Source: a virus. Taken from it: DNA of 64,000 nt. A model generated the notes under the pieces. The model saw only the letters and a list, made by a program, of their open reading frames with translations, did not search any database and was not told the origin of the DNA. Shown piece after piece: positions 1-23,500 of the stretch (position 1 is its first letter; each line of letters opens with the position of its first letter). Made by a program: the position numbers and the translations under genes. The DNA lies in IMG/VR virus record IMGVR_UViG_3300045988_042432. One strand, written 5' to 3'.

Positions 1-2
1 CT

Positions 3-554
3 ATGATGGGAACTCATCCGCATGAGTGGTTCATGTTCCACGGTGCTATGTATGGCTATAAACAGGCTAATTACATGGCTCTTGAGAATTGGGTAAATGT
101 GTATGACGGTGATTTGGGAATAGCATTGTCTGACACATATACTTCTGAAGTGTTCATGAAGAACCTGTCTCGCAAGCAAGCTAAATTGTTTGACGGAGTA
201 AGATGTGACTCTGGCGATGAGTTTAAGTTCATAAACAGTATGATTGCTCGTTATAAAGAACTTGGAGTAGACCCTACTACTAAGACTATAGTATTCAGTA
301 ATGCTTTGGACTTTGACAAATGCCAGGACATTATGGAGTATTGTGGAAGTAGAATCAGGTGTTCGTTTGGAATAGGCACTAATCTCACTAATGATACTGG
401 GTTTAAGCCGGCTAATATAGTGATGAAGCTTATTAGCTGTCAAATGAATGCTAATCAACCTGTTTATGGATGCGTGAAGCTGTCTGATGATGCCGGTAAA
501 CATACTGGAGAAAATAAAGAAGTTAATGCTTGTTTAGTTGAATTAGGATTATGA
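3..554 (+). CDS. pncB: Nicotinate phosphoribosyltransferase (PncB/NAPRTase family), C-terminal 183 aa; 5-prime end lies outside the window
   Basis: The ORF runs off the left edge. GTHPHEW, VRCDSGD and SFGIGTNLTND match conserved PncB signatures (GT.AHEW / R.DSGD / GIGT.LT.D). The stop overlaps the next start (ATGA at 551-554). Confidence 0.8.
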   Translation: MMGTHPHEWFMFHGAMYGYKQANYMALENWVNVYDGDLGIALSDTYTSEVFMKNLSRKQAKLFDGVRCDSGDEFKFINSMIARYKELGVDPTTKTIVFSNALDFDKCQDIMEYCGSRIRCSFGIGTNLTNDTGFKPANIVMKLISCQMNANQPVYGCVKLSDDAGKHTGENKEVNACLVELGL

Positions 555-1513
555 GTGAACTAAATTATGAACACGTATTTAACGTATTAGTTGATAAAAC
601 AGCTGAATACGTTACTTCTAACAACCTTAAAGCAATGGTATTGGGCATCAGTGGAGGAATTGACTCCACTGTTGTCGCTGCTATCTGCCATGAGGTTAGT
701 AAGAAGACTGGTATTCCTCTTATAGGAAGAAGTCTTCCTATTAAGAATAAAAGTGATGAGTTCGCTACTTCTGTACATGTAGGAGAAGCCTTCTGTAATG
801 AATTTAGTGTTTACAGACTTGAACGTTCCTATCGTGCAGCTTTGTTTGATGCCTGTGCTGATGCAGGTGATGTCAATATGGCTAATTCTTACTATCTCGA
901 TGAACTAGAAGAAATGCCTAGTAGAACTCCTATTGCTAATGGTAATCTTCAAGCTAGGTGCAGAATGATGTATCTATATGATATAGCTAGTCGCCATAAA
1001 GGATTAGTAATGAGTACAGATAATCAAACTGAATATCAGCTTGGATTCTGGACTATTCATGGTGATGTAGGTGATTTTGACCCAATTCAAGACCTATGGA
1101 AGACAGAAGTTTATGAGTTAGCTAAGTGGATTAGTAATCGCTATAAAAACATTGAACACCACCATACTATAATGACTGGTGCTGGAAGTAAATCTGATGC
1201 TATAGAGTTATCTATAGCTCTTACTCCTACGGACGGTCTTGGCATTAGTAACAGTGACTTAGAGCAAATTGGAGCTAAGAGTTACGATGAGGTTGATGAT
1301 ATACTCTCTAGATATATTCCATTTAAGGAGTATCGACAGAAGCATGGAGAACCACTTCATCCACATGATGAAATAGCAGAATCTGATTGCTGGTCACAAT
1401 TATGTGTTAGGCATGGAGAAGATGTAGTCAATAAGGTTTGGAGCCGACATTTAGCTTCCGAATTTAAACGTAAGAAAGCTCCAATTTATATATCTAGGGA
1501 ATTATATGAATGA
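551..1513 (+). CDS. nadE: NH3-dependent NAD+ synthetase
   Basis: 320 aa, single-domain size. The PP-loop SGGIDS lies at 650-667 after the hydrophobic strand AMVLGI. NadE-like downstream blocks are present (MSTDNQTEYQLGFWTIHGD; TPTDGLG..SDLEQIG..YDEVDDIL). There is no glutaminase domain. Confidence 0.88.
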   Translation: MSELNYEHVFNVLVDKTAEYVTSNNLKAMVLGISGGIDSTVVAAICHEVSKKTGIPLIGRSLPIKNKSDEFATSVHVGEAFCNEFSVYRLERSYRAALFDACADAGDVNMANSYYLDELEEMPSRTPIANGNLQARCRMMYLYDIASRHKGLVMSTDNQTEYQLGFWTIHGDVGDFDPIQDLWKTEVYELAKWISNRYKNIEHHHTIMTGAGSKSDAIELSIALTPTDGLGISNSDLEQIGAKSYDEVDDILSRYIPFKEYRQKHGEPLHPHDEIAESDCWSQLCVRHGEDVVNKVWSRHLASEFKRKKAPIYISRELYE

Positions 1514-2609
1514 TTTAGAGAGAAGGGTTCACACAGCTATTAAAGAGTGTTATGATGTAGTCATAGCCCCAACTTACGGGTTAGGTTCTGCATTAGCCGC
1601 TGTATTTATGAAGATACATGGAAGAGCTCCACATAGGGCGACTTTTAGAACAGATTATTATGCAGTAGACTTACCAGAAGGACGAGAATGGTCAGATGCA
1701 GAATCTAAAGGAAAGATTAAATCTATTTCCGGAAGTAAATCTATAGACTATTGGGCAACTCAACACAACCTTTTAAAGTTGTTTCCAGATGCAGTTCATA
1801 TAAGGTGGGGAGATGATTACTTCTTATTTACTGATGAGTATATTATAGACCTTCAGGACCTAGAAATTCTAATGTTGAATACTGATGATATTCCAAAAGA
1901 AATAGTAGATTGCTTGGTATATAAAGAGGCTAAAGCTACTATGGAATACGTAACCTACAGTAATCAAGGATTCAGAACCACACTAATGAAAGTAAAAGAA
2001 CAAGATTGTGATATACAATCTAATTATAATGATGACTTACCACATCAACAAATAACCGATATGATAAATTCCAAGGAAAGTGGAATTGCCATACTACACG
2101 GAGTTCCTGGTTGCGGTAAGACTAGTTATATTAGAAAGCTAATAGCCGACAATCCAGGTAAGAAGTTTGTGTTCTTAGACGCTTCTACGTTTCAATACAT
2201 TGGGGATGCTTCATTTATTGAACTTCTTACTAATAAGAGAGATTCAGTGTTTGTAGTAGAAGACTGCGAGGACTTATTAGTAAGTAGGGACACTAAAGGA
2301 AATCACAGAATATCCTCTTTACTAAACCTGTCAGACGGTATACTTGGAGACTCTTTAAACCTTAAGTTCATATGTACCTTTAATGCTGATATTAGTAGTA
2401 TTGATAAAGCATTATTACGTAAAGGAAGATTGAAAGTTAAATATGAATTTGGTAAACTTACCAAAGATAAAGCTACTGCCTTAGCTGTTAAACTTGGTAA
2501 GACTGAACCTGTAACTGAAGACATGGCATTGTGTGATGTCTATAACTTAGGCACAGACAATGGTGGTGAACAAATTGAAAGTGATAGACCTAAAATTGGA
2601 TTTAGATGA
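1506..2609 (+). CDS. AAA+ ATPase (classic clade) with an unrecognised ~190-aa N-terminal domain
   Basis: Motifs seen: Walker A GVPGCGKT (2100-2123), Walker B VFVVEDCED, sensor-1-like FICTFN, and the Arg-finger region ALLRKGRL. The start overlaps the nadE stop and the stop overlaps the next start. Confidence 0.8.
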   Translation: MNDLERRVHTAIKECYDVVIAPTYGLGSALAAVFMKIHGRAPHRATFRTDYYAVDLPEGREWSDAESKGKIKSISGSKSIDYWATQHNLLKLFPDAVHIRWGDDYFLFTDEYIIDLQDLEILMLNTDDIPKEIVDCLVYKEAKATMEYVTYSNQGFRTTLMKVKEQDCDIQSNYNDDLPHQQITDMINSKESGIAILHGVPGCGKTSYIRKLIADNPGKKFVFLDASTFQYIGDASFIELLTNKRDSVFVVEDCEDLLVSRDTKGNHRISSLLNLSDGILGDSLNLKFICTFNADISSIDKALLRKGRLKVKYEFGKLTKDKATALAVKLGKTEPVTEDMALCDVYNLGTDNGGEQIESDRPKIGFR

Positions 2610-2863
2610 AAATGAAATTGTATTATGGAGCCTTGGCCTTGCTTTGGCTCCTTTCTAGTTGTACTCCCAGTGATAATGTAACTGACAACCATGACAAGGT
2701 TGGAACTTGTCGTAATGGTCATATCAGAGCTCTTACTTTGAATGGTCATACATATTACTGGCAAAATCATTGGTTTGCACATGCAGGAGACTGTAAGAAG
2801 TGTAAGCATGAACTTGATAGTATAGTTAAAGCAGCAGTTAAGGAGGCAATGCAATGCGAGTAG
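2606..2863 (+). CDS. Small secreted lipoprotein (85 aa), Cys/His-rich mature part
   Basis: MKMKLYYGALALLWLLSSC gives a basic n-region, a hydrophobic core and a lipobox-like LSS|C (Cys19 codon 2660-2662). The mature part carries CKKC and several His. It is coupled to both neighbours by overlapping codons. Confidence 0.6.
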   Translation: MKMKLYYGALALLWLLSSCTPSDNVTDNHDKVGTCRNGHIRALTLNGHTYYWQNHWFAHAGDCKKCKHELDSIVKAAVKEAMQCE

Positions 2864-3429
2864 GATTATTCTTTGGCTCATTTGACCCTCCCCATATCGG
2901 GCATGTAAATGTGGTAATGGGAGCCATTAACTCCAATCAGGTGGATAGAGTGTTAGTGATTCCTGCTTATCAAAACTTATGGAAGGAGAATAGCTCTAAA
3001 TTTTCATATAGGTATGCTATGAGTTGTATGCAATTCGACACTTTGCCTTTTGTACATGTAAGTGATGTAGAGAAAGACTTAGCAGGTCCTGCTTATCCCA
3101 GAGGTATACCTACATACGTTGTACTGGAGGAATTAAAGTCTAGAATGCCAGAGGATGAATTAGTAATTATTACTACTCCAGAAACCTATAAGGATATTCC
3201 TGAATGGCATAAAGGGTCTGTAATATTGTGTGACTATAAATTCCTCATGGTGGTAAGTGGAGAGGAGACCCCACAAGACCTTCCGGAGAATGTACATGTT
3301 GTATACGTTCCGCAAATAACAATATGCTCTACTTGCATTCGCAATAGAGTAAAGCTTGGAATATACATCCAGCCATTTGTAAGAGATACTGTAGAAGCAT
3401 TCATTGACCAATATAGATTATATGTATAA
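2854..3429 (+). CDS. nadD: Nicotinate/nicotinamide mononucleotide adenylyltransferase, NadD type
   Basis: 191 aa. The nucleotidyltransferase motif GSFDPPHIGH lies at 2875-2904. The C-terminal ISxT.IR-type motif is ICSTCIRNR. The motif style is NadD-like rather than NadM/NadR-like. Confidence 0.8.
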   Translation: MRVGLFFGSFDPPHIGHVNVVMGAINSNQVDRVLVIPAYQNLWKENSSKFSYRYAMSCMQFDTLPFVHVSDVEKDLAGPAYPRGIPTYVVLEELKSRMPEDELVIITTPETYKDIPEWHKGSVILCDYKFLMVVSGEETPQDLPENVHVVYVPQITICSTCIRNRVKLGIYIQPFVRDTVEAFIDQYRLYV

Positions 3430-3457
3430 AAGCTGGATTAACTGAAGAATTTTACTA

Positions 3458-4012
3458 ATGAAGAATTATCCTATTACAATTGAAACAGGTGAACATGCTG
3501 GGGAGACAGTCTGGGTTCACCGTAGTATAGCCGTTGCAGGATTTATATTTTGTAAAATTAACGATGAATGGTGTGTTCTTGCTAATCAAAGAGGTGAAGG
3601 AGCACCAGACTTTCAAGGATATTGGAACTGTCCTTGCGGCTATTTGGACTTTGATGAGACATTAGCAGAAGCTTGCTCTAGGGAAATCTACGAGGAAACT
3701 GGAGTTAAGATTGAACCTAGTGCTCTTTATATGTGTAGCGTTAACGATGACCCGAAAGACTCTAACAGACAGAATGTTACTATGAGGTTCATGGCTGTAG
3801 TAGACGAGAGTCATATTGGAATTTCTACTAATGCTATCAAAGGACAGCTAGGCGGAGAGGAGAATGAGGTAAAGGCTATCATGTGGGTTAAAATATCTGA
3901 CCTTGATAATTACCAGTGGGCGTTTAATCATAGACATCTCATTGAAGGCATCTTTTATACTTATGTAGATTATGAAGAAGTAGAAGGTTTAGACGATTTA
4001 TTTGCTGAATGA
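3458..4012 (+). CDS. Nudix hydrolase (substrate unknown; ADP-ribose/NAD-derived nucleotide is plausible from context)
   Basis: A perfect Nudix box G-x5-E-x7-REUxEExGU is present: GYLDFDETLAEACSREIYEETGV (3638-3706). Confidence 0.88.
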   Translation: MKNYPITIETGEHAGETVWVHRSIAVAGFIFCKINDEWCVLANQRGEGAPDFQGYWNCPCGYLDFDETLAEACSREIYEETGVKIEPSALYMCSVNDDPKDSNRQNVTMRFMAVVDESHIGISTNAIKGQLGGEENEVKAIMWVKISDLDNYQWAFNHRHLIEGIFYTYVDYEEVEGLDDLFAE

Positions 4013-4554
4013 CATACTTCATTAGTGGACACAGAGACATAACTCCTGAAGAATTTGAGAAGTTCTACGTTCCAGCAATTGTTGATGTGATAGATACATG
4101 CAACGATAATTACGATGACTGTGAATTTGTAGTCGGAGATTGTAGGGGTTGTGATGAAATGGCAGCTAATTTCATAGCAAACTACATTAAGGAGAATACA
4201 GATGATACAGAGTGTCCTCCATGTATTTTGTGCATTTATCATATGTTCTCTGAACCTAGGTTTAGAGTAGGCGTAGCTGGACAAGACGGTTGTTATCATG
4301 TTGACATGGTAGATGAGCTCAATGCAGACTTATGCGAGGATGATGACCCATATACCATAGATGATTGTCCTATTGTACATTATGTAGGTGGATTTGAGAC
4401 AGATAGAGACCGTGATTCTGCTATGACCAATGTTTCAAGTGAGGATATTGCCTTTATAAGAAGCAAATCTAAATGGGATTCTGGTACAGCAGAGAATATA
4501 TTACGTAGGCACACTATGAAATATCTAAACCCTAGTTTTTATGGACAACAGTAA
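4009..4554 (+). CDS. SLOG-superfamily (YspA/DUF2493-like) nucleotide-binding protein, putative
   Basis: The ordered elements ISGHRD, FVVGDCRGCDEMAANF, DRDSAMT..SEDIAFI and DSGTAENI follow the conserved layout of DUF2493/DprA-LOG-like Rossmannoid domains. There is a Cys-rich acidic insert. The call comes from remembered family consensus only. Confidence 0.5.
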   Translation: MTYFISGHRDITPEEFEKFYVPAIVDVIDTCNDNYDDCEFVVGDCRGCDEMAANFIANYIKENTDDTECPPCILCIYHMFSEPRFRVGVAGQDGCYHVDMVDELNADLCEDDDPYTIDDCPIVHYVGGFETDRDRDSAMTNVSSEDIAFIRSKSKWDSGTAENILRRHTMKYLNPSFYGQQ

Positions 4555-4786
4555 AGATTGGGGTGAGTTCCTGGAGGGCATTAAGGCTGCACAACAGGCA
4601 ACTGAAGCTCAAAAGGAAGCTAATGAGCAACATGAAAAGTATGAAAGATTGAGATTTGAATTTACATTAGCATTAATCAATAACAATGACCTCTTACATG
4701 AGAGGTCATTTAAAGAGATATGTCAATTAGGAGTTGAATTAACAGATGAATTTATGAAACATGAATCTGAAAAAGGGAAAGTTTAA
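4541..4786 (+). CDS. Hypothetical protein (81 aa, helical/coiled-coil composition)
   Basis: The ORF sits in the operon frame pattern and overlaps its neighbours. No motif was recognised. Confidence 0.5.
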   Translation: MDNSKDWGEFLEGIKAAQQATEAQKEANEQHEKYERLRFEFTLALINNNDLLHERSFKEICQLGVELTDEFMKHESEKGKV

Positions 4787-5498
4787 AATTGTTGAGGGAA
4801 CAAGAGTTAGAATGGTTTCTTCAAAAGATACTCATATAGTCGAAGGAGCTTACGGTACTGTAGTCAGTCCTGGTATAAGAGAGTCGGAAGTGCGTTGGGA
4901 TAGTATGTTAGCAATTAGAGCAGATTATAGATACAGAAATGAACTAGAAGATGCTCTCATCATTCCAGTTTATAATGACTTATTGGACCCTTCTGGAAAC
5001 TTCCAAATTTGGACTCCTGAACCTATTGCGCGAATATACCTTGACGATTGTATCAAGTATATAGGAGAGGATACAAAAGACCTCAAATATGGTGATTTGC
5101 TTTGTGTATATTCTATGACTTTATCAGAGCATTCATTGTATGCAATACAGTTAAGTAATTACAAACTACACAAATTGGACACCAGTGTCTGTGCATTAGA
5201 AGGAAAGGGATATGCTTTAGCTAAAGACACTAAGGTCAAAGTAGTCCTAGACTCCGCTTATACAGAAGTTGGACAAACTGGTAAAATTTATCGTACTGAT
5301 TACAGGTCAGCGCTGCCCTATGAAGTTATTATAGATAAGGGTGATTGTGTTTGGGTTGCTGGATGTACCATACAGAATGTTGATACTGAAGTGTACATAG
5401 AAGAGTATTCAGCAGATGTTGAGAATGAAGTATCACCAGACGAGGATATACTAGAGAACGGATTCTCCAGACAAGTAACATTTTATGAAAAGGATTAA
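4761..5498 (+). CDS. Hypothetical protein (245 aa), possibly three small beta-rich modules
   Basis: A long ORF co-oriented in the operon. It shows a weak three-fold recurrence of the pattern G..V.V...(x)G..G.V. No catalytic motif was recognised. Confidence 0.6.
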   Translation: MNLKKGKFKIVEGTRVRMVSSKDTHIVEGAYGTVVSPGIRESEVRWDSMLAIRADYRYRNELEDALIIPVYNDLLDPSGNFQIWTPEPIARIYLDDCIKYIGEDTKDLKYGDLLCVYSMTLSEHSLYAIQLSNYKLHKLDTSVCALEGKGYALAKDTKVKVVLDSAYTEVGQTGKIYRTDYRSALPYEVIIDKGDCVWVAGCTIQNVDTEVYIEEYSADVENEVSPDEDILENGFSRQVTFYEKD

Positions 5499-6390
5499 CA
5501 AATATTTATTTCTAGACGTAGACGGGGTTCTCAATAGTGTCTCATGGTACAGAGCAGAATGGAATAAGGACCATGTGTATCCTCAAGGTGACTTTGACCC
5601 TAAGTGTGTTGAAATTGTAAACAGAATAGTCAAAGAGACTGGCTGCAAGGTAGTAGTCAGCTCCTCTTGGAGAGCTGAAATTAATTTGCAATCAATCTTT
5701 GACAAAGCTGGTTTAAAGTTCAAGATACATAGTATTACTCCGTTTGGAGTCCATAGAGGTTGTGAAATAAGGGATTGGTTAGCATCCGAAACCGAACCTT
5801 ATGTTTATGCTATATTGGATGATGACAGAAGTATGCTTGCAGAACAGAGGAAGTACTTCATTAAGACTAACACAGTTACGGGTATTACTGATGAAGACGC
5901 AAGACATGTAATTAACATTTTAAATAGAAATGATATGTGGAATGATAAATTAAACTCCTTAATTATGGAGTCTATGAAGAATCACGACGCTGTTCGGACT
6001 ACAGTCCTCCGTGCAATTAAGACGGAATTTAGCAACTATGCAACTGCTAAGAATGCTAAACCTCTTGACAATGCTGCTGAAATAGCCATTATTAAGAAGT
6101 TACGTGACCAACGTATTGATAATGCCGAACAGTATCGTATGGCAGGTCGTCAGGATTTATATGATAATGAAATGGCAGAATCTCTTATCTTGAATGAGTT
6201 TCTGCCCGAGGTCCCTGATGATAAAGTACTTGCTTTAGGGTTAGTAGAAGTCTGTGCATTACAAGGATGTGAAGACGGGCCTAAGATTCCTAAGAGCAAA
6301 ATGGGAATCATTATCAAAGAGCTTAAAGCTATGTTCCCTGCCGCAGATGGTAAACAGATTGCTGATTTAGTAAAATCTTGTGTAGTATAA
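5485..6390 (+). CDS. HAD-superfamily phosphatase fused to a GatB/YqeY-type domain
   Basis: The N-terminal half carries HAD motifs: I FLDVDGVLNS, II VVVSSSWR, IV AILDDD, plus RGCEIRDWL. This pattern recalls the HAD clade linked to RNA-repair proteins. The C-terminal half (about aa 165-301) reads VLRAIKTEF..AEIAIIKKLRDQRIDNAEQY..GRQDL..E..ILNEFLP, which is YqeY/GatB C-terminal-domain-like. Confidence 0.65.
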   Translation: MKRINKYLFLDVDGVLNSVSWYRAEWNKDHVYPQGDFDPKCVEIVNRIVKETGCKVVVSSSWRAEINLQSIFDKAGLKFKIHSITPFGVHRGCEIRDWLASETEPYVYAILDDDRSMLAEQRKYFIKTNTVTGITDEDARHVINILNRNDMWNDKLNSLIMESMKNHDAVRTTVLRAIKTEFSNYATAKNAKPLDNAAEIAIIKKLRDQRIDNAEQYRMAGRQDLYDNEMAESLILNEFLPEVPDDKVLALGLVEVCALQGCEDGPKIPKSKMGIIIKELKAMFPAADGKQIADLVKSCVV

Positions 6391-6391
6391 T

Positions 6392-6643
6392 ATGACACTA
6401 AAAGAAATTGTAACCTTACCTTATCCAGCTAAGATATCACATGCTATAGCTGGTGTACTTTATTATCAAATAATAGCTGGTGATAAAGCTATTGTCTTTC
6501 CAATAGACATGAATGACAGAGACGATGTAGGAACTACTACGTTTCTAGCAGAGTATCCGAAACCTATCACATTAATGAGATACATTCGTAAAGCAATTGA
6601 CTCTGGTGAGTTAGTAATAGCTACTACTGATGCCGAAGTATAA
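6392..6643 (+). CDS. Hypothetical protein (83 aa)
   Basis: The ORF is tightly packed in the operon. No motif was recognised. Confidence 0.5.
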   Translation: MTLKEIVTLPYPAKISHAIAGVLYYQIIAGDKAIVFPIDMNDRDDVGTTTFLAEYPKPITLMRYIRKAIDSGELVIATTDAEV

Positions 6644-6812
6644 TGTAAGTATCGATAGACAGCTTAGATGTCGTCTATGCTTTGACATAAAAGTTGAAGC
6701 CGACAGCGAAGACGAAGCTTGGGAAAAGGCTTACGATACAGTAGACCTAGGAGATTTAGAAGTGAGAGATTGTGAGTATAGCGACGATGAAATAACCCTT
6801 CTAGAAGAATGA
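6630..6812 (+). CDS. Hypothetical small, strongly acidic protein (60 aa)
   Basis: The ORF overlaps both neighbours. The C-terminal two thirds are dominated by D/E (DSEDEAWEKAYDTVDLGDLEVRDCEYSDDEITLLEE). Confidence 0.45.
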   Translation: MPKYNVSIDRQLRCRLCFDIKVEADSEDEAWEKAYDTVDLGDLEVRDCEYSDDEITLLEE

Positions 6813-7525
6813 TTATAGGTATAGTTGGTAAGAAGCAAAGCGGTAAGGATACAGTTTGTAATATCATTCGGTATATAAGTTGGCTTAAATCTTCCAAACT
6901 ATGGGGAGAAGTAACTCTGAATGCTAAACACTTTGAAGCTGTCTGTGAAAGTGAGGATATTGCTCCTATACTTAGTATATGGGAGAAACATCCATGGGCA
7001 GAGAAGCTGAAACAGTGTGCATCCATTATACTAGGATGTCATGTGTCAAGCTTTGAGACAGAGAGTATCAAAGAATCATTTACACATATTCCAATTAGTA
7101 ATAGTGAAGGAGAACCTATGACTCATAGAGAGTTCCTACAAGTACTAGGTACTGAAGTGGGAAGAACTATTGACCCTAACCTATGGGTTAAATCTATGAT
7201 GTCTGACTATGATAAAGGATTTAAGAGTTATCCTACTTATGGTACTGATGAATATGGCAATACTGCGTTTGTACACATGAATACAGTAGAGCCTTGTTGG
7301 ATTATGCCAGATACTAGGTTTCTAAATGAAGTCCAAGCTATCAAAGATAGGAAAGGAATTGTCATTAAGGTAAACAGAGATACCGGATTACTAGATAATC
7401 ATATTTCAGAACATGCTTTGGATGATTATAATGACTATGACTACGTCATTGATAATAACGGAACTCTTGGTGAGTTAATTGTCAAAGTAGCAACTATGAT
7501 GGAGACCTTAGGGGTGCTTCAATAA
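6809..7525 (+). CDS. Deoxynucleoside monophosphate kinase (phage T4 gp1-like)
   Basis: P-loop GKKQSGKDT. The blocks REFLQVLGTEVGR..PNLWVK, IMPDTRF.NE, NHISEHAL and VIDNNGTLGEL are collinear with T4 gp1 (GVKRSGKDT, RRLMQALGTDL..MYWVK, IVPDTRQ.HE, THITEAGL, VITNDGSLEEL). Confidence 0.85.
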   Translation: MIIGIVGKKQSGKDTVCNIIRYISWLKSSKLWGEVTLNAKHFEAVCESEDIAPILSIWEKHPWAEKLKQCASIILGCHVSSFETESIKESFTHIPISNSEGEPMTHREFLQVLGTEVGRTIDPNLWVKSMMSDYDKGFKSYPTYGTDEYGNTAFVHMNTVEPCWIMPDTRFLNEVQAIKDRKGIVIKVNRDTGLLDNHISEHALDDYNDYDYVIDNNGTLGELIVKVATMMETLGVLQ

Positions 7526-7533
7526 ACAATAAT

Positions 7534-7582
7534 GGCCTGTATGGTGGAGTGTAATGCTCTACTGTACAGGCCATTTTTTTTT
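7534..7582 (+). terminator. Intrinsic terminator at the convergence point of the two arms
   Basis: The GGCCTGTA/TACAGGCC core (7534-7541 / 7565-7572) extends to a 16-bp stem. The three non-Watson-Crick positions are G-U pairs only in the + strand RNA. Nine T follow (7574-7582). The 8-bp core plus the T-rich complement of 7525-7533 could also act on the - strand transcript. Confidence 0.8.
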
Positions 7583-14574: not shown

Positions 14575-17500
14575 TTAACAATTAATTCTTATTTGTATAG
14601 TATTACGCTCCATTAAGCTCTTAATCTTATTAACTATATTCTCCATAGAATCATTCCTATTAAGGACTAACTCTTTCATTTTAGCATTCTGATTTGGAGT
14701 TCTAATAACGAAGTAATCATCATATAGTCTTCGCATGTCTACATTACTTGGGTCTGGGATGTCATTTACTTCATAGTAGTCTTCTCCGTCCCTTTCATAT
14801 AGTTCAAGACGACCTGTTTCTTCATTTCTCATTCTAATATACTTATCTCTAGCTCTACCCTTAGCACTTTCACTAATAATAGGAGCCATTCTAATGAGTG
14901 CATCTTCTAATGAGAATGTGTCCATGTTAACATCCAAATCATAGTCTGATTGTCCTACATACTTTTGATACTCTATTAGTAAGTCACTAACATCAGTCTT
15001 ATCAAATGTGTTCAGTAAAGTAGTAAGTCTGTCAGCACCGTACTTATTCTTATTAACAACTAAGTTATATAAGAAGAACCAGTCAGTAAGAGGTAATCCT
15101 TGCAGATTAATTCTCTTCAGTGCTGCAAAATCTTTCTGGTATCTACTGAACATTGCTTGGTCTGATTCAGTTCTTACGTTCATCATATCAATAGGTAATT
15201 TCATATATGTAGTATTACCTCTAGTAAATGGGTCAGTACGTCTGTTCCTACTTAATCCTTGCACAAACTGGTTGATTAATAAGGAGCGAACCCTCTTATC
15301 TCCAACCATTCCGTTATGAAGTTCCGGAATAACTGTTCTTTCCATCCAGAGTTTAAAGTTAGCAATTCCATCATTAGTAGCCAAACTAAATACCTCGCCT
15401 CCTTCTTTAATATCATGCAGAGTCATATCATTTCCGATATACTTCTGACCCTCATCCATTCTGAAGGTAATGTTGCGTTTAGCCAGCCAGCCAGTGATTA
15501 GTACATCGTCTACATGCTCACCGAGTGCATTTAATTGCTCTTTAGTAACAGCTCTACCATATGTAGGATTCTCTTTAATAAGAGCTTCTCTATAGGAATT
15601 TACTAGATTAAATTTAGTACTGATATTTACATCAGTTGTATCAGTAAGGTTATATACTTCGAACAATGCCTTAAAGTGAGGAATTTTATCAATCATGTCG
15701 AATATATTCCAAGTTCCCTTTATTAGATTATAGTAAGCTATGGTTGACTTCTTATAACCAGAGTTCATTGGGTCAAGGAATTTCCTCATACTAAATCCTC
15801 CATTAGTAATACCTTGTGCAACAGCATCGTTGACTACAGCTCTTACTTGCTCTTCGGATAGATAAGGCTTATCATTCAGGATGTTCTTAATAACTACTTC
15901 CGAGTTATAACCTTTCTCATATTTGTCATCTTTATATAGTTGCTCTCTGCTAGTAATTGCAGATTCATATGTATTTAACCTGGACATCTTACCTCCTAAA
16001 TCTGTAGGCATACCTTGATTTAGTCCGTAGAATCTTCCTAACAGTTCTGTCTCTCTAGCATTTCTATTTACCTTCTTAAATTCGGCAAATCTGTCCATGT
16101 CCAACCTATTTTTCATCTTCTGTAGGTACTTATATTCTTCCAAGAATCTGTGTTCTCTATAAGATACAGCTGGGAATATATCATCAATAGAATCACCTTC
16201 TGCAAACCTATCTTTGATAGCTTGAATCCAATTACCTCTCTTATCGAACGCTTCCTCTCCAGAGTCAAGTAGTTTCTCTTGCACTCTTTTGAAGAAGTTA
16301 CCTAAAGAAGTAGAATCGAAGTAGTTTCTAATATTAGGGCCTTCTTCCAATGCTCTAACTACAGAGTCTACTGATGCATGGTCATGATATTCATCAAATA
16401 CATTTACCTTCATTAAGTCATTTACAGTTTGTACTGTCGGGCTTGTCATGAATTTAGCGATATCATTAAAACTGAATCCTAACATAATCATATGTAAGTA
16501 CATACCAGCTAGATTAGGACCTGCATTAATTTTAGAAAGAATCAACTCTTTAGCATTATCAGTAGCAGCTGACAGTAATGCAGAAATTACTAATGACTGG
16601 TCTGGTTGCATACCTAATTGCTCTTGAACTACTCTAGCTACATCCTCCGGTGACAATTGCTGTTCTACAGCTCTGACTATTAAATTTCTCCAATAATCTT
16701 TCTTAACTGCCAAATCATCGAAGTTAACGTTGGCCATTATGTTTCTTAGAGTAGGTACTGTTATAGGTTTACCATTCTCACTTAACATTGTTTGAATGCC
16801 TTCAAATCTAGTGGAGAAAAACATGTTGTCTAACCAATCCTGGTCTCCATTTCTAACGCCTTCATTGAAATAGTAACAGTTGGCAAAGAATACTTTCTCA
16901 CCTACAGCTGCAATACCAATTACCTGTTTACCGTCCATATTCTGCATCTGCATTACCCATTTGGATGAGGGTGATGTCATGGTAATCTTATTAGCTTCTT
17001 GTCCAGATGCTGATTCCTTAGCTGCCCTTTGTGGGTCTCCCATTTCAATAGGAGAATAAGCCTGGTTCATATTCTTCAAATTCTGGATAATATTGCTAAT
17101 TTTAGATGATACAGAGTTTCTAAATGCAGGAAGTAAGTTGCTTCTTCTAATCTTCTGTCTACCATTTCTAGCTTTCTTTCCATTCTCATCAAATTCTTCA
17201 GTCATATACATAGTATGATTGTTAATTCTATTAAGAATGAAATTAGCATTATCGGTGTCAACTTCACCTGAATATGTTAATATTCTAGCATCATCAATAG
17301 CGTTAAGCATCTCTGCTATTACTGAAACAGACTCTGGATTATAGAAGTTCTCCTTGTTAAGTTGGTTTAGATAGTTAGTAATGTCTACTCCACCGCTTCC
17401 GTATGCGTATAACTTACCATTAGGAGTAGGTAGCATTTCGGATGCTTTGAGTGACTCGATACTATTAAAATTAAAATATGGAGACCAGCCTACATAATGT

Positions 17501-20500
17501 CCGCTGGTATCAAAATCATAACCCATAATATAAGCCTTGTCAATATCATAGTCAGAACCCTGCAACCATGTCTGCCAGTGAGATACATGTACCACATTCT
17601 TATCAGAATCATTAAATGCAACAGCTTTCATCTTCATAAATGACTGCATTGTCTGTGCAGGAATACGAGCTACTGTAAATTCAAGTGATTTCTGGAATGA
17701 TACAAACTTCTTCTTGGCATCTATAATCTTCTGATTCTTCTCTATTCCGTCTAATTGATAAGCCAACCTAGATACGCTAAACTCTTCTCCTTCGTTCTCT
17801 TTATAAGTATCAAATAGTAATTTAAGCAATCTATCATTTCTTTCAGAACCTGCTTCAATTACTTGTTGCATCATTTCCTTATTCTTAGTGTATTGGTTAA
17901 TTTTGACAGAATCGAAGCTGTCCATTCCGTAAATGTCAATTACACTGTCAGGAGTTTTAGCTACTAATACTTCTTCAGTAGTGTTATTACCTAATGCATT
18001 GTAAGATGTTACTACTTCATGATACTCTCCACTTTCATCATAGAATCCAGCCTCGTACATCTTCTCACCATTTTCATCTACCCTCATAACACTATTACCA
18101 ACTCTAACGAAATCAGATTCAGTAAGTGCTTTATTAACTGATAGATGTTCCATTAAGGAAGGAGTTTCTCCGAGTGCAACATACACATGTTTACCATTAG
18201 CTCTAGTAAACATCATATCATACCATTTAATTTTAGGAGCGTGATATTTATCATACCTATTAACGAAGAACTGATATCCTTGTGTAAGTACATCATTAAT
18301 ACTATCATTAGGTCCTAAGTTAAACTGGTCTACATATAGTTTACTAATAGAAAGTTCAGCAGGATTACTAACTAAATTCTGAATAGGAATAGCAATATCT
18401 CCATTGCCTAAATCCCTAATATAGCCATTGGCTGCATATTTATCACTGAATGCGACTGGGTCTGCTAAGTACTCTGCTTTCTGAATACCAGTTACAGGCA
18501 TATATCCGTTGTCCAGTAACGTAAATGTTGCTTGTATTTGTGCTTGTATTTCAGAATCTAAAGCTTTAGGAAGTTTACCTCCGTCATACTTAGTTCTTTC
18601 ACTGAATGACCTTTGTATAGCTGGCATATCAAATATGCTATGTCTCATACCGGTCATATCTTCCCAATAAATCTCTGCTGGCTTTAAGTCTGTAGGTCTA
18701 GTAATATCAGTATAAAATTGAGAGAAATTAGCTTTTACTAAGTTGTATGTATCAAAATCATTTACATACACTGGTACGTAACTGCCCTCTATACTCCAAC
18801 CTCTATCAGCTAGATATTGGTCTACAGTCATTAAAGAATTGGCTTGATTCTTAGCTTGTGCAGACACAGCTTTGTCATAATTATCCTGTGCTTTAGCTAT
18901 CTCTACACCTTCTCCGTCTCCATTTTGCGCTTTCTCAAGTTCTGTCAGAGTTCTCTTAACAGCCAAATCAAGAGCTATTTGCTTGTCTAATGCATTTTGG
19001 CTAATTCTAGCCACTACTGATGCTACTTCTTGAATAGGCAATTTGATTCTGTCTCCAGGAAGTAATCTATCTATAGTAGATGCTGGCTGTGCCTCTATTT
19101 TAGCTTGCTCGCTTTGTAAATATTCATCGGGAGTCATTCCTTGTTCGGAAGCAATCCTGTAAATATCATCATATTTATAATTAGTACCTCCTATGCGGAA
19201 TTGTTGTACTATATTATATGCGGGAGCCATAACTGCACCCATACCTGGGAACTTCCTCTTAATAGCAGTTTTATTAATATTAGATGTAAACGAAGATAAA
19301 GTTTTACCAAAGATAGAAGGGTCACTGTACGGTATTTTATATACATCAGTTCCATGAGAATTATTATTCTTTCTATCTAATGCAAACTCTGCTTTAGCTT
19401 TCTCAATAATAGTCTTAGCAGTACCAAGTTCATCTCCGTCCTTATTAAGCTCCTTAATAATAGCTTTACCTACTATCTCATAAATATCAGATTTAACATC
19501 GGGATTGTCAGTAGGTTTAATCCCAACTAATGTATACACTGCATCTCTAATGCCACCTATTGATGATAATGCCACTCTACCTAAGTCCTTGTATGCCATT
19601 TTAGCCATACTGTGAGTGAATCCCATGGCTTCCAATGCAGATATTACCTGTGAGAACTCTGTCATTGTGGATTGATGTTCTGGGTCAGTTACTACATGGT
19701 CTGCATCCATTTGAATACCAAGACCTTCAGTATTAAACTCCATTTCCATTAAAGGACTGTTATTAAACCAAGAACTATCCCCGTTTATATTTTGGGCTCC
19801 CACTTTAATTGCAGACTTGTTAACCAAGTAAGCAATCATTTTATGTTTGAGCGGTTGAATAGTATTACGTTGAGAAGGTATCTCTCCATTAGGTCTATAC
19901 CAACCTACATTGTTAGCATAATTAGCAGTAACGGCTAAAGAAGCATCACTGTAAGCAAGTTCTCCATTTCTAAGAGATTCACTATACACTCCACCTAGTG
20001 CTGCATGTAGTTCAAATAATGAATTAATAGGAACATTTAACTGAACCATTACATTAGCGTCTCCTACAGCTTTAACTGGATTACCATATTCATTAACTGC
20101 TTGAGTTCTAATATTATATAATCCGTCACCTACTCTATCAAGACCTAATATCTCATAATGATTGTTACCGTCCCTGTAGAATATTCTTTCACCACCAGTA
20201 ACATCTTTAAGCTCCATAGTGTTTCCGAATATGTTCTTAGTAAGGTCTATTCCTTCATAAGCTCTGTCGAACTGGTTTGTAGACTGATTCCATTTGAAAT
20301 CAGACATCTTTCTAAACATATTATATAGACTAATGTCAGATTTCATAGAGTTTCTCATCCTTTCGTTATATGTAGAGAATGTAGCAAATTTCAACAAAGA
20401 AGCAGTACCATAATCCCCATTAAAGTCATGCCCAATAGGCTTTTTATCATCACCTACAGCAGAATCCTGTAATGAGAAGTTCTCTAAATAAGACATAATA

Positions 20501-23500
20501 GGATTACAGAACGCAGAACCGTCATGTGCATCTACAGTAGATGTCTCACCTTTAAAGTTGTACACAAATGCTGCAACGTCGCTCATAATAGCCAATCTGT
20601 ATGTCTTAGGAATACCTAGCAAGCTGTTTTGTTGGAAATACTGTAGTGTACCTGGTATAATTACATTTCTCTTTAATTCTGCAAGTTCTCTAGAAGATTG
20701 CTCTAACTCTATACCATTAAATGACACAGGATTAACTTTACCATATTTAGCTTTATTAGGATGTGCTATACTACTACCTGTAGTGACTAGTCGCAAGTTC
20801 TCTGAAGTTAGAAAGTCAGCTAAGAAGTACCTTTCGAGAATAGGATTTAGAGTAATATCTTCATCATTTCTTAACCATGTACTATCTAAGTCAGACAACC
20901 TACTAAGTACCTTGTCTCCTTGCTTAGCTAGTATTAATTCTTGAGTATCATTGTTTATCCATGATGCCTTATCAGTAGGAATAAGAGTATTTAATGCCTT
21001 ATTTAAAACAGAGTTTACTCTACCGTTAGCGTATCTAAGAGGGAATGTCATATTATTATCAATCATATCTTTGACAAACTTCTTCTTCTCTCTCAAGAAC
21101 ATTTTATTATATACATCTTCCTTAGCATATAACTCATTAGCATTAAAATTCAATAAAGCGTTTGGAGACAGTCCGCCTTTCTTGTTTCCATTTAGGACAA
21201 ACGAACCTCCCTTATTAACATGTACATTATCAATATTAGGGACTCCATTTCGATAAGACATATCACCGTATTCTCCTTTAGTAGTTACTGACAATATTGC
21301 TTGAAAGTCTTTAAATGTCATTTTATCTACTAAGTCAATAGGTTCCTTAGGCTGTAATTCTGTTAATATATAGTTATTAATTGCATCAATTTCCATATAA
21401 TCTCCAGCCTGCAATGCCGCATCAGCTAATGCTTGTTGTTTAGCAACTTCTTCTGCCAATTTAGCATTATGTGCTTCTATTTTAGCATTCTCTGCATCCA
21501 CTGCTGCTTGCTTACCAACTATGCTATTATAAGCATCTGTTAGTCCATTCTCTTGTAGTCTCTGTAGGAATGTATCGAGACTTCCTCTATATACATTTCT
21601 ATAGTCATTAAGCACATTATTAAATGTGTTCTTATAGTAAGAACCAACAGTAGACCTAATAGCTTTGTTTAAATCGGAAATTGATGAATTAAGTAAGTCA
21701 ATAGTAAACTCTTCTCCATTCTCGTCAACAAGTTTGATTCCGTCGGCAGTTAAGGTCCACATTACGAATGTTCCCTTATCAGAATATACAGTAGGTTGAA
21801 CATTAATAGTCTTAGATTGTCCTTTGTCAACCTTCCTTAATAGATTAGCATAGAAGTCATATAATATTGAAGAATATCCAATCTCTGCTACAGAGAAACT
21901 AGTAGCACTCTTCTTAACTCCAGTTCTACTAACAACATCGGTTTTAATTGATGTACCTCTAAGCATACCTGGATTTAATCCAAATAATGTATTCTTTAAA
22001 GAAGAGTTCGGATTCTCTATAATGGTTCTTGTGACGTATCTTCTAGTCAATCCAGCTAAATTAGCAATCCTACTATTAGGAATATTATTACCTTCAGCGT
22101 TCTTAATAACAGATTTAAATATTTCTCCAGTTACTATTTGCTCTGCTGCTACTAAATCATTCAAAGTGTTAATTAAAGCACCATCAATAGCTTTTAATGA
22201 GTTAGATGACTTGTCGTAGTAGAATCTAGCTTCTGGACTATCCTCATCAACTTTATCAGTATAATATTTAAGGGTCTTAATAAATGAATACAGGTCTAGG
22301 TTGTCTGGATTGTTAGTCTCGAACTCATTATATACTGTATTTACAAATGCAGAACTATTAGCTAGAGACATTAAGTTCTCTGTTAGATATTTTAGATTGT
22401 CTGCTTCTTTTACATTCTTAAATGCCGCCAGTAAATCTATGTTGCCATTTAGGAATCTAGTATTAATGAAATCATCCATAAACTCTACTAAAGATACATA
22501 TAGTCTCTCCTGTGGAGTTATAGTTTGAGGGTTATTCTCTTCATAGATTGCTTTTAGTGTAGTAAATGAAGGCTCTTTTAATATAGTATCTAATGAACCA
22601 TATTTAACCTTATCAGAAGGACTTAACTCAAGTTTCTTTTGACCTTTACTACCAATAGCAGCCCTATTATATATAAGAGTAATAGTGTCGCCATTATAAG
22701 GTAATTTAAATGAGATGTCTCCCAGAGTAGCGTTATGTACTTCTACTCCCCACTTGTCAAGTAGTTCTTGTCTGTTGCCACGTAATTCATTACTAATATC
22801 AATATCATTCTCTCTCTGGATTTTACGTCTGTTGACATTAGTTTGTTTAATTTCCATAGAATCTAGGTCATTTGTGTCTTGATTCATGGCATACTGAATA
22901 TACTTAGCATTATTAGTTCTATCTACAACTCCAGATATTGAATCAAGCAAATCATAAGTGGTTATAGCTTTGGATTGCTTGTAATCGTTATTAATAATGT
23001 TATATAGAGAGTTAGCTCTGCTATCATTATAGAACTTCTCATAAATAGATTTAAATACATTCAAATCATTTATTTGAAATATTCTAGAACCTCCCCCATT
23101 GTTAATAATTTCTTCAAGAATCCTCTTCAAGTAATAATTAGGAGCTGAATGGAAGTTAATAACTAATTCTTGCAGTCTGTCTCCAAAATATAGAAAGTTC
23201 GCTTCGTCTTTAAGCTTATTCATTGAATGCAAGAACTGTTTAAGTGTAAGGTAATTGTCCCTTATTTGCTCTCCAGTGGTAAAGTTAAGCACAGGAGTTT
23301 GCTCAATAAGTAACCTAGACACATTACCTATTTCAGATATTGCATCCACATTCTCATTAGTTCTCCAGGTTTTAACCATGTTAGAACCAGCTCTAAATTG
23401 ATATTTATTAACTGATACGGGAATCTCTATTCCAATATATCCTTTGTTCTTAATCTCCATATTCTTTCCGAATAGATTCTTAAGAATAGTATCAAAATTA

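Follow-up and report, generated by a model that had tools for sequence, protein, structure and literature searches.

The viral DNA analysed here (IMG/VR record IMGVR_UViG_3300045988_042432; the whole stretch of 64,000 nucleotides is called the window) begins, on its plus strand, with genes predicted to encode enzymes for the synthesis of nicotinamide adenine dinucleotide (NAD+) by the deamidated, or Preiss–Handler, route. A first-pass annotation had proposed a three-gene operon for nicotinate phosphoribosyltransferase (PncB), NH3-dependent NAD+ synthetase (NadE) and nicotinate mononucleotide (NaMN) adenylyltransferase (NadD), followed by a Nudix hydrolase gene, as a candidate counter-defence of a crAss-like phage. 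The motifs quoted for these proteins are all present in the four plus-strand open reading frames (ORFs) given below, and profile searches place the ORFs in the named families far beyond chance (NAPRTase, E = 2e-37; NAD_synthase, 1e-37; NF000840, 1e-26; NUDIX, 2e-13).

3–554, plus strand: predicted pncB, C-terminal 183 amino acids (aa), cut by the window start (residues ~205–387 of 387)
551–1513, plus strand: predicted nadE, 320 aa, single-domain NAD+ synthetase (Pfam NAD_synthase, TIGR00552, motifs)
2854–3429, plus strand: predicted nadD-type adenylyltransferase, 191 aa (NF000840, TIGR00482, alignments to solved structures, motifs)
3458–4012, plus strand: predicted Nudix hydrolase, 184 aa (Pfam NUDIX, Nudix box GYLDFDETLAEACSREIYEETGV, AF2 model)

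These genes lie in a densely packed ORF array that occupies the plus strand from 1 to 7525. The overlapping stop and start codons described earlier are found at the pncB/nadE junction (ATGA), whereas nadE and nadD do not adjoin, being separated by a gene for an AAA+ ATPase and an 85-aa ORF; the junctions of nadE with the ATPase gene, of the ATPase gene with the 85-aa ORF, and of the latter with nadD all overlap. The Nudix gene is the next after nadD, across a gap of 28 nucleotides, and its stop codon overlaps the start of a SLOG-like gene (4009–4554). The notion of a discrete three-gene operon has to be given up, as the genes belong to a long packed array that ends at a hairpin (7531–7575), situated between a deoxynucleoside monophosphate (dNMP) kinase gene and a convergent minus-strand block beginning at 7588. 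Start and stop codons of the cluster overlap those of adjoining phage genes. The GC content of the cluster (35–39%) equals that of the phage (36%), which speaks against contaminating DNA or a chimeric assembly and is consistent with genes that have long been part of the phage genome. A sigma-70 promoter scan found 28 candidates against 29.5 expected from shuffled sequence, with a tool that lacks Bacteroidota promoters, and none was placed.

The proposed crAss-like identity of the genome is borne out by the Pfam model Crass_capsid, which matches the minus-strand ORF at 56601–58019 (4e-14), and by the presence of CrAss_Ring_1 in MT835470.1, a 117-kb GenBank contig from human faeces whose DNA is 93% identical to the window.

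PncB and a predicted upstream nicotinamidase

The PncB fragment in the window covers positions 49–226 of 239 of the Pfam NAPRTase profile (2e-37) and positions 216–395 of 399 of TIGR01514 (6e-66), and carries the motifs GTHPHEW, CDSGD and GIGTNLTND. Look-up of the exact NadE protein of the window found a 5.8-kb contig, L001, which encodes NadE and AAA+ proteins identical to those of the window together with the same 183 PncB residues, and whose gene order is kept in MT835470.1; because of these identities and this shared order, the upstream extension through L001 is reliable. The full-length PncB (387 aa; L001:2538–3701) lies above the curated equivalog cut-offs of NF003704 (442.7 bits, cut-off 379) and TIGR01514 (413.4, cut-off 269.55), and matches both Pfam NAPRTase_N (7e-30) and NAPRTase (9e-52). 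Its closest solved structure is the nicotinate phosphoribosyltransferase 2im5 (8e-116), which we take to be the Porphyromonas gingivalis enzyme, and GTHPHEW is aligned with the counterpart motif of that structure. The GTHxHE motif presumably holds the phosphorylated histidine.

Upstream sequence had been expected to complete pncB and perhaps to add pncA or prs. Besides the rest of pncB it contains, ~1.3 kb before window position 1, a gene for a 192-aa isochorismatase-family protein (L001:1676–2254) that is predicted to be the nicotinamidase PncA, which would make the route from nicotinamide to NAD+ complete. The solved relatives of this protein are nicotinamidases (yeast Pnc1 2h0r, 1e-21, followed by 3r2j, 1ilw and 3pl1), and it passes the Pfam Isochorismatase threshold (38.4 versus 27). 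In the alignments to 2h0r and 3r2j, the catalytic aspartate (VDPQVDF), lysine (IKG) and nucleophilic cysteine (GDYCV) are conserved, as are the metal ligands (DFHPSNH and WPPHCVKG). No gene for phosphoribosyl pyrophosphate (PRPP) synthetase (prs), PnuC, NadR, Nampt or a Prs-like protein was found in the module or elsewhere in the 117-kb MT835470.1. Two small predicted membrane proteins, of 79 aa (L001:1433–1672) and 98 aa (L001:2245–2541), flank pncA and are kept in the close clade; they have no assigned family.

NadE and NadD

NadE matches Pfam NAD_synthase (1.3e-37) and scores 135.5 bits with TIGR00552, for which the cut-off is 63.65. Its closest entries in the Protein Data Bank (PDB) are the Campylobacter and Helicobacter enzymes 3p52 (7e-20) and 1xng (3e-18), and then 3fiu of Francisella (1e-17). 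Aligned with 3p52 and 1xng, NadE retains the PP-loop SGGIDS, the NGNLQARxRM segment, the glutamate of TDNQTE and the lysine of WKTEVY. Pfam finds no CN-hydrolase or glutaminase domain in the 320-aa single-domain protein, and for this reason NadE is presumably NH3-dependent, with ammonia as the nitrogen donor.

The catalytic core of NadE is invariant over ~25 phage variants, although the protein also has insertions specific to its lineage. The protein as a whole is 73–100% identical among phages in which the flanking genes are 97–100% identical, and the differences are gathered in three segments outside the core (residues ~68–125, 195–230 and 250–285), which are reshuffled cassettes of unequal length (total 320–335 aa). 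The pattern in the aligned variants resembles diversification of surface or loop regions by recombination, and we assume that the variable segments include the flexible loop that covers the active site in other NadE enzymes. A homologue search returned 5,631 relatives at E ≤ 1e-10 in the protein database; the top 120 clusters are all phage variants of 85–99% identity, so that the search does not inform on the cellular origin of NadE.

NadD is matched by NF000840 (1e-26), TIGR00482 (7e-24) and, in Pfam, CTP_transf_like (7e-7). It aligns from end to end (residues 2–190) with the NaMN adenylyltransferases 8aih (3e-14), 2h29 (2e-13) and 1kam, over a range of E values from 3e-14 to 6e-13, and its two signature motifs, GSFDPPHIGH (GxFxPxHxGH) and ICSTCIR (ISSTxIR-like), are aligned with those of 8aih and 2h29. 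The allele of the relative L011, which occupies the same slot and is 30% identical to that of the window, lies above the TIGR00482 cut-off (148.8 versus 112.45).

Two NadD alleles of ~30% identity share this one slot (window 2854–3429 versus L011:10426–10992, L020:4076–4636 and L071:4463–5023), and the PncB proteins of phages with the two alleles are 75–84% identical. Judging by these comparisons, nadD has apparently been replaced in place by a distant homologue.

Profile, solved-structure and motif evidence thus all point to the enzymes for the conversion of nicotinate to NaMN, nicotinate adenine dinucleotide (NaAD) and NAD+, as had been proposed. The catalytic residues, whose possible absence had been raised as an objection, are conserved in PncA and NadE, and the signature motifs of NadD are present.

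The Nudix hydrolase

The Nudix protein (Pfam NUDIX, 2e-13) has an intact canonical box, GYLDFDETLAEACSREIYEETGV (GX5EX7REUXEEXGU), of which the REx2EE part is invariant in 41 homologues; in divergent relatives the box is one residue shorter (Gx4E). Its top NCBIfam model is the Nudix half of a bifunctional nicotinamide mononucleotide (NMN) adenylyltransferase (NMNAT)/Nudix protein, and a profile of the phage orthologues has 2fml, 3gz8 and 3dku as top PDB matches, each at ~1e-6. The AF2 model (mean predicted local distance difference test score, pLDDT, 86) gives as its top Foldseek match the same 3gz8, the Nudix domain of NrtR with bound ADP-ribose (2.5e-10; template-modelling (TM) score 0.76; root-mean-square deviation 2.2), followed by 2fml and by the Francisella NMNAT/ADP-ribose (ADPR) pyrophosphatase 2qjt/2r5w. 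Among homologues, the name ADP-ribose pyrophosphatase occurs once in nr and once in JGI, and several others carry the generic name MutT. A proline stands 16 residues past the box, which we take to be a signature of ADP-ribose pyrophosphatases. These profile matches and the modelled fold suggest a probable ADP-ribose pyrophosphatase belonging to the NrtR/NadM-Nudix clade; the earlier annotation of a perfect Nudix box directly after nadD is thereby kept in substance and narrowed to an ADP-ribose-binding clade. The protein also matches the PADLOC family PDC-S07 (9e-13).

Conservation, turnover and origin of the cluster

IMG/VR was scanned with PncB and with the SLOG-like protein, which gave ~100 loci, and crAss-like contigs of 64–188 kb were compared. 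The genes do co-occur in crAss-like genomes, a point for which the first-pass annotation had suggested a survey. The order Metallophos–PncA–PncB–NadE–NadD–Nudix–SLOG–HAD/YqeY–dNMP kinase recurs in >60 crAss-like contigs from several samples, and it is kept while PncA, NadD and SLOG drop to 30–45% identity, which argues for long-term selection on the gene set. Near-identical contigs measure 96–147 kb and the longest with close homologues is ~185 kb; no contig of the lineage >200 kb was seen, the completeness of these contigs not being established.

The cluster is also lost in parts. PncA and PncB are gone in L029 and L030, PncB in L040, and NadE and NadD in L044; L049 retains solely Nudix and SLOG, and NadE is truncated in L013. 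In L064, L070 and L084 no NAD gene is present, Nudix is lost too, and the metallophosphoesterase gene directly abuts that of SLOG. Taken as a natural deletion series (L009, L013, L027, L029, L030, L040, L044, L049 and L073), the variants comprise truncated or lost pncB, truncated or fused nadE, and loss of nadD and Nudix, and might serve as ready-made comparators for the fitness effect of the cluster.

For the bacterial side, prokaryote genomes (one per species) were scanned with PncB, and the best 80 loci were taken. These hold the chromosomal PncB of Bacteroides, Phocaeicola and Parabacteroides, 65–70% identical to the phage protein, and in 79 of the 80 best Bacteroidales loci pncB is solitary, with no PncA, NadE or NadD within 6 kb. 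The exception, L139 (JAFZDT010000057.1; 5,115 bp), was binned into an Erysipelotrichaceae metagenome-assembled genome from buffalo rectum and carries, in the phage order, PncA (37%), PncB (69%), NadE (45%) and NadD (35%); it probably derives from a more distant ruminant-gut phage that has the same cluster, and was assigned to the wrong bin. From these identities, the host lineage is the probable source of the phage pncB; because pncB is solitary in the bacteria, assembly of the four-gene array probably took place in phages. Capture of a ready-made host operon was considered and rejected on the same ground.

Neighbouring genes

The remaining features of the plus-strand module within the window are as follows.

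1506–2609, plus strand: AAA+ ATPase, 367 aa (Pfam AAA, 4e-11; Walker A GVPGCGKT)
2606–2863, plus strand: 85-aa ORF with a lipoprotein-like signal (…LLSSC), seen in the sequence
4009–4554, plus strand: putative SLOG-superfamily (YspA-like) protein, 181 aa (AF2 model, name of a homologue, weak fold matches)
5485–6390: HAD phosphatase/YqeY-like fusion (PF18143, 2e-27; PF09424, 7e-22)
6809–7525, plus strand: dNMP kinase gene, the last before the terminator-like hairpin
7531–7575, plus strand: terminator-like hairpin, a 20-bp stem followed by a T run, which closes the module

The SLOG-like ORF has no match in PHROG, in Pfam (to E = 10) or in PADLOC. Its protein has 379 homologues, one of which is called 'YspA' in nr, and five invariant motifs (FISGHR, FVVGDxxGxD, HMF..PR, D..RD.AMT and SGTA.N..RR). 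The PDB matches of its AF2 model (pLDDT 89) are below significance (the LOG protein 5its at E = 0.087, DprA, and the SLOG domain of ThsA); in BFVD the model matches two uncharacterised giant-virus proteins (3e-6) and YspA/DprA-like viral proteins (E = 0.03–0.5). Homologues in crAss-like relatives that lack NAD genes adjoin SIR2 (PF02146, 4.5e-41) and NADAR (PF08719, 4e-37), and those in phages of 200–400 kb adjoin Tpt1/KptA (7e-30) and a cytidylyltransferase-like gene, which may encode an NMNAT. This recurrent company of NAD+ and ADP-ribose genes suggests an ADPR-related ligand or substrate for the SLOG protein.

The cluster is headed by a gene for a 234-aa metallophosphoesterase (L001:736–1440, ~2.2–2.9 kb upstream of window position 1; the same gene is at L003:9589–10293), which is closest, among solved structures, to the cyclic-nucleotide phosphodiesterase-like MPPED2 (5e-9) and matches the PADLOC candidate defence family PDC-S10 (1.4e-38). 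By homology it may degrade nucleotide signals. It was also considered as the aRES-countering phosphatase and rejected in that role, that enzyme being a Macro-domain protein.

The AAA+ ATPase matches AFG2, BCS1 and Rpt ATPases in the PDB and has an N-terminal region of 190 aa that belongs to no assigned family; the 85-aa ORF has no match in Pfam, NCBIfam or PHROG. The AAA+ gene is missing from the syntenic cluster of the divergent relatives L011–L017, L020, L021 and L052–L083, and the 85-aa ORF is seen solely where the AAA+ gene is, both being limited to the close clade of the window and L018. The two are a lineage-specific insertion between nadE and nadD, outside the core of the pathway. The ATPase was accordingly rejected as a pathway component, since divergent relatives have the complete pathway without it.

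Within the plus-strand module, the cluster is preceded by PNKP, PolA, CYTH and ThyX genes and followed by that for dNMP kinase, and NrdD and dUTPase are encoded elsewhere in the genome. PF18143, in the HAD domain at 5485–6390, is of the 'Swiss Army Knife RNA repair' type, and MT835470.1 also has, elsewhere, PNKP, an RNA ligase and a CCA-adding or poly(A) polymerase-like gene. Together with the HAD/YqeY fusion these suggest a phage RNA-repair set, and RNA-repair genes share the module with the cluster.

The minus-strand block consists mostly of two giant ORFs, 14575–24339 (3,254 aa) and 24345–33248 (2,967 aa), and of further ORFs of 1,525, 1,554, 1,601 and 1,162 aa. A Pfam scan of six minus-strand ORFs (449–1,524 aa) gave the capsid as the sole match, the two giants and the 1,554-, 1,601- and 1,162-aa ORFs being outside that scan. 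The large ORFs may encode large proteins of the virion or of transcription, as are typical of crAss-like phages.

Proposed pathway and role

We hold it to be very probable, from the combined homology evidence, that the cluster encodes the enzymes for nicotinamide → nicotinate → NaMN → NaAD → NAD+. PncA would convert nicotinamide to nicotinate and NH3, and PncB would join nicotinate to PRPP made by the host, giving NaMN. NadD would adenylate NaMN to NaAD, from which NadE would form NAD+ with ATP and free ammonia, so that the ammonia of the PncA step would be consumed. The Nudix hydrolase would split ADP-ribose into AMP and ribose-5-phosphate. Effectors with NADase activity release nicotinamide and ADP-ribose; the Nudix step would hence remove the second of these products and feed the regeneration of PRPP and ATP. 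An infected cell could in this way restore NAD+ from the products of NAD+ cleavage without host gene expression. Enzyme identities are assigned here by homology, and from them we infer the activities, the order of the steps and the supply of PRPP by the host.

On balance, the gene content favours the broader reading that the cluster is a complete phage-encoded deamidated (PncA plus Preiss–Handler) salvage pathway of a crAss-like phage of Bacteroidaceae, which would keep NAD+ up during infection, including under depletion by TIR, SIR2 or similar effectors, in the manner of the NAD+ reconstitution pathway NARP2 and with host-derived enzymes of the deamidated route. Whether the role would be counter-defence or general NAD+ supply we consider about evenly balanced on the gene content.

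Several points weigh against this reading. Two of the enzymes lie below curated equivalog cut-offs, PncA for NF008623 (73.8 bits versus 174) and the NadD of the window for TIGR00482 (85.0 versus 112.45) and NF000840 (93.6 versus 150). The presence of 3fiu among the nearest solved relatives of NadE makes the order of the last two steps less certain, and NudC-type hydrolases of NAD(H) and NAD caps come close behind the ADP-ribose-linked matches in the Nudix structure search. The frequent partial losses indicate that the cluster is accessory or dispensable. Its position among replication and nucleotide-metabolism genes (PolA, ThyX, PNKP and dNMP kinase) fits general metabolism equally, and the deamidated route is more expensive in ATP than either NARP1 or NARP2 and relies on host PRPP.

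The strongest rival, possible but clearly less probable than the favoured reading, is a general auxiliary metabolic module with no specific link to immunity, which supplies NAD(P)+ for nucleotide and DNA synthesis (for example, for the NADPH-dependent ThyX) or offsets host shut-off. The embedding of the cluster in the replication module speaks for it, as does the same interpretation of the same genes in jumbo-phage and gut-virome papers (PMC11662467, PMC11780533); moreover, the host lineage already has PncB, and the phage copy may merely raise flux. However, none of the NAD+ users LigA, SIR2, ART, Macro, NADAR and Tpt1 was detected in the window or in the 117-kb close relative, where the phage ligase is ATP-dependent, and a supply of NAD+ for the phage's own ligase was rejected on these grounds. 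The two products of NADase effectors are precisely what PncA and a Nudix of the ADP-ribose type would take as substrates, the neighbours are conflict-associated (the metallophosphoesterase with PDC-S10, Nudix with PDC-S07, and SLOG beside SIR2 and NADAR in relatives), and frequent gain and loss is typical of counter-defence genes.

Rather unlikely, in our estimate, is that Nudix and SLOG act outside NAD+ recycling by destroying or sequestering Thoeris-type cyclic ADPR signals, NAD-capped RNA or NAD(H). Consistent with such a role, the structural matches of Nudix that follow the best ones include NudC hydrolases, the weak matches of the SLOG model include the ThsA SLOG domain bound to 3'cADPR, SLOG homologues stand beside SIR2, NADAR and Tpt1 in other phages, and the metallophosphoesterase and SLOG genes remain adjacent in L064, L070 and L084 without any NAD+ synthesis gene. 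In the same three contigs, however, Nudix is lost along with the NAD genes; its top matches are ADP-ribose-binding or -hydrolysing domains tied to NAD metabolism (NrtR and NadM-Nudix), and no PDB match of the SLOG model reaches significance.

We also consider, as a doubtful extension, that the whole Metallophos–PncA–PncB–NadE–NadD–Nudix–SLOG stretch is a composite 'NAD+/ADP-ribose island' directed against NADase immunity at three levels. NAD+ would be rebuilt from nicotinamide by the deamidated route, as a fourth and mechanistically distinct reconstitution pathway; ADP-ribose would be salvaged to AMP and to ribose-5-phosphate for PRPP; and the SLOG protein and the phosphoesterase would bind or degrade ADPR-derived or cyclic-nucleotide immune signals. 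In that case the mosaicism of the NadE surface segments would be the mark of an arms race with some host factor directed at NadE.

A change in the order of the last steps is improbable. In this version NadE would be an NMN synthetase (NaMN → NMN) and NMN would be adenylated by the NadD-like enzyme, still with NAD+ as the product. The group of short single-domain NadE proteins includes 3fiu (1e-17), near the top match 3p52 (7e-20), and we take 3fiu to be the Francisella enzyme that Sorci et al. 2009 reportedly described as an NMN synthetase. The divergence of the window NadD, under the NadD equivalog cut-offs, and the location of the variable NadE segments outside the catalytic core are compatible with this order. 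Against it, the adenylyltransferase belongs with NadD and not with NadM or NadR, and its top models and structures are all NaMN adenylyltransferases. For the Francisella-type route, PMC7824862 cites Sorci et al. 2009.

That the genes are host-derived passengers in decay or without activity, or that the assembly is chimeric, can be dismissed as very improbable: truncated and deleted versions do occur (for example in L009, L013, L027, L029, L040 and L044), but the ORFs are intact and the catalytic motifs kept in the window and most relatives, a GenBank record and >60 independent viral contigs, drawn from several samples, share the synteny, the GC content matches that of the phage, and start and stop codons overlap those of flanking phage genes.

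Comparison with known systems

The first-pass annotation knew of no earlier account of this route as a phage counter-defence. The gene set as such has been reported. Gut jumbo phages carry complete Preiss–Handler pathways, including a pncB–nadD–nadE cluster in Kuafu_71, described by sequence analysis and structure modelling (Microbiome 2024, PMC11662467), with the hosts of human-gut NAD-jumbo phages predicted to be mainly Bacteroidota (PMC11662467); in 2025, pncAB, nadD and nadE were noted in gut viral genomes enriched in healthy controls (PMC11780533). What remains of the novelty claim concerns the lineage and the route: in the literature searched, there is no account of this cluster in crAss-like phages, none of NARP1–3 uses the deamidated route, and the name 'NARP4' is absent. 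The crAss-like survey of Yutin et al. 2021, in which these phages dominated the mapped viral reads of the human gut, has no mention of NAD, nicotin- or Nudix (PMC7886860). Among GenBank phage records, 13 of 50,697 have PncB homologues; three are unannotated gut contigs, most of the others are phages of 460–735 kb, and the list also includes a 60-kb Moraxella phage and two 133-kb Acinetobacter phage records.

With the NAD-jumbo phages (PMC11662467) the cluster shares the enzymes PncB, NadD and NadE, grouped in a gut phage genome, a likeness in gene content. In contrast to them, the phages described here are crAss-like, with Crassvirales capsid and ring proteins, and their contigs are <200 kb, outside the jumbo cut-off, which would explain why the jumbo-phage survey missed the cluster. 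PncA, the ADP-ribose-type Nudix and SLOG also belong to the cluster here, in an order conserved across the lineage. The cluster is thus a new, well-conserved crAss-like member of the reported phage Preiss–Handler NAD+ clusters, to which it adds an ADP-ribose-type Nudix and a SLOG neighbour.

The chromosomal salvage pathway I of Bacteroidales (PncA/PncB/NadD/NadE) has the same chemistry. It differs in that pncB is solitary in the bacteria, whereas the phage has four genes in one array, a short single-domain NadE and phage-like GC. As for the Nudix protein, its nearest sequence-profile and structural matches are in the NadM-Nudix/NrtR clade, a family genomically tied to NAD metabolism, and its box is intact; unlike those proteins, with which it shares ~22% identity, it stands alone, without a fused NMNAT or winged-helix DNA-binding domain.

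The practical value of the cluster lies in its being a defined four- or five-gene cassette, one suited to defence assays in E. coli. CrAss-like phages have hosts that are difficult to handle. The cluster is also of relevance to NAD+ metabolism in the gut, since the PncA route of bacteria has been reported to feed host NAD+ pools. Viral NAD genes correlated with health status in a virome study (PMC11780533). A nicotinamide-to-NAD+ pathway that phages have put together and conserved would demonstrate that phage and host contest the supply of NAD+ when Bacteroidaceae are infected.

Pathways by which phages restore NAD+ under NADase defence are experimentally established for NARP1 (Adps plus Namat) and NARP2 (Nampt plus Nmnat) by Osterman et al. 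(bioRxiv 10.1101/2024.02.11.579819), whose text has no mention of nicotinic acid, NadD or NadE, and for NARP3 (PnuC plus NadR; PMC13464706). NARP1 passes through a non-canonical ADPR-pyrophosphate intermediate and NARP3 imports nicotinamide riboside, whereas no Prs-like protein, Namat, PnuC or NadR was detected in the plus-strand module of the window, the upstream region or the 117-kb relative; ADP-ribose, which NARP1 re-uses intact, would here be broken down by the Nudix hydrolase.

NARP2 makes NAD+ from nicotinamide, PRPP and ATP by canonical salvage enzymes of the phage, as the present cluster would, and the logic would be the same if the cluster is counter-defence. The NadV/NatV pair of phage KVP40 is usually taken as the NARP2 prototype, and NatV also bears a Nudix domain. 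NARP2 has two amidated steps (nicotinamide → NMN → NAD+), in contrast to four deamidated ones here (nicotinamide → nicotinate → NaMN → NaAD → NAD+), of which the NadE step would need additional ATP and ammonia. The phosphoribosyltransferase here is PncB (TIGR01514), not Nampt, with a weak match (3e-11) to the PHROG family 'nicotinamide phosphoribosyl transferase'. The genes of NARP2 were themselves once read as metabolic helpers before Nampt plus Nmnat was shown to be counter-defence (bioRxiv 10.1101/2024.02.11.579819). If it does rescue infected cells from NAD+ depletion, it would be the deamidated-route counterpart to NARP1–3 and a candidate fourth reconstitution pathway, in a very abundant group of gut phages, and would explain why phages of hosts dependent on PncA/PncB salvage take the deamidated route.

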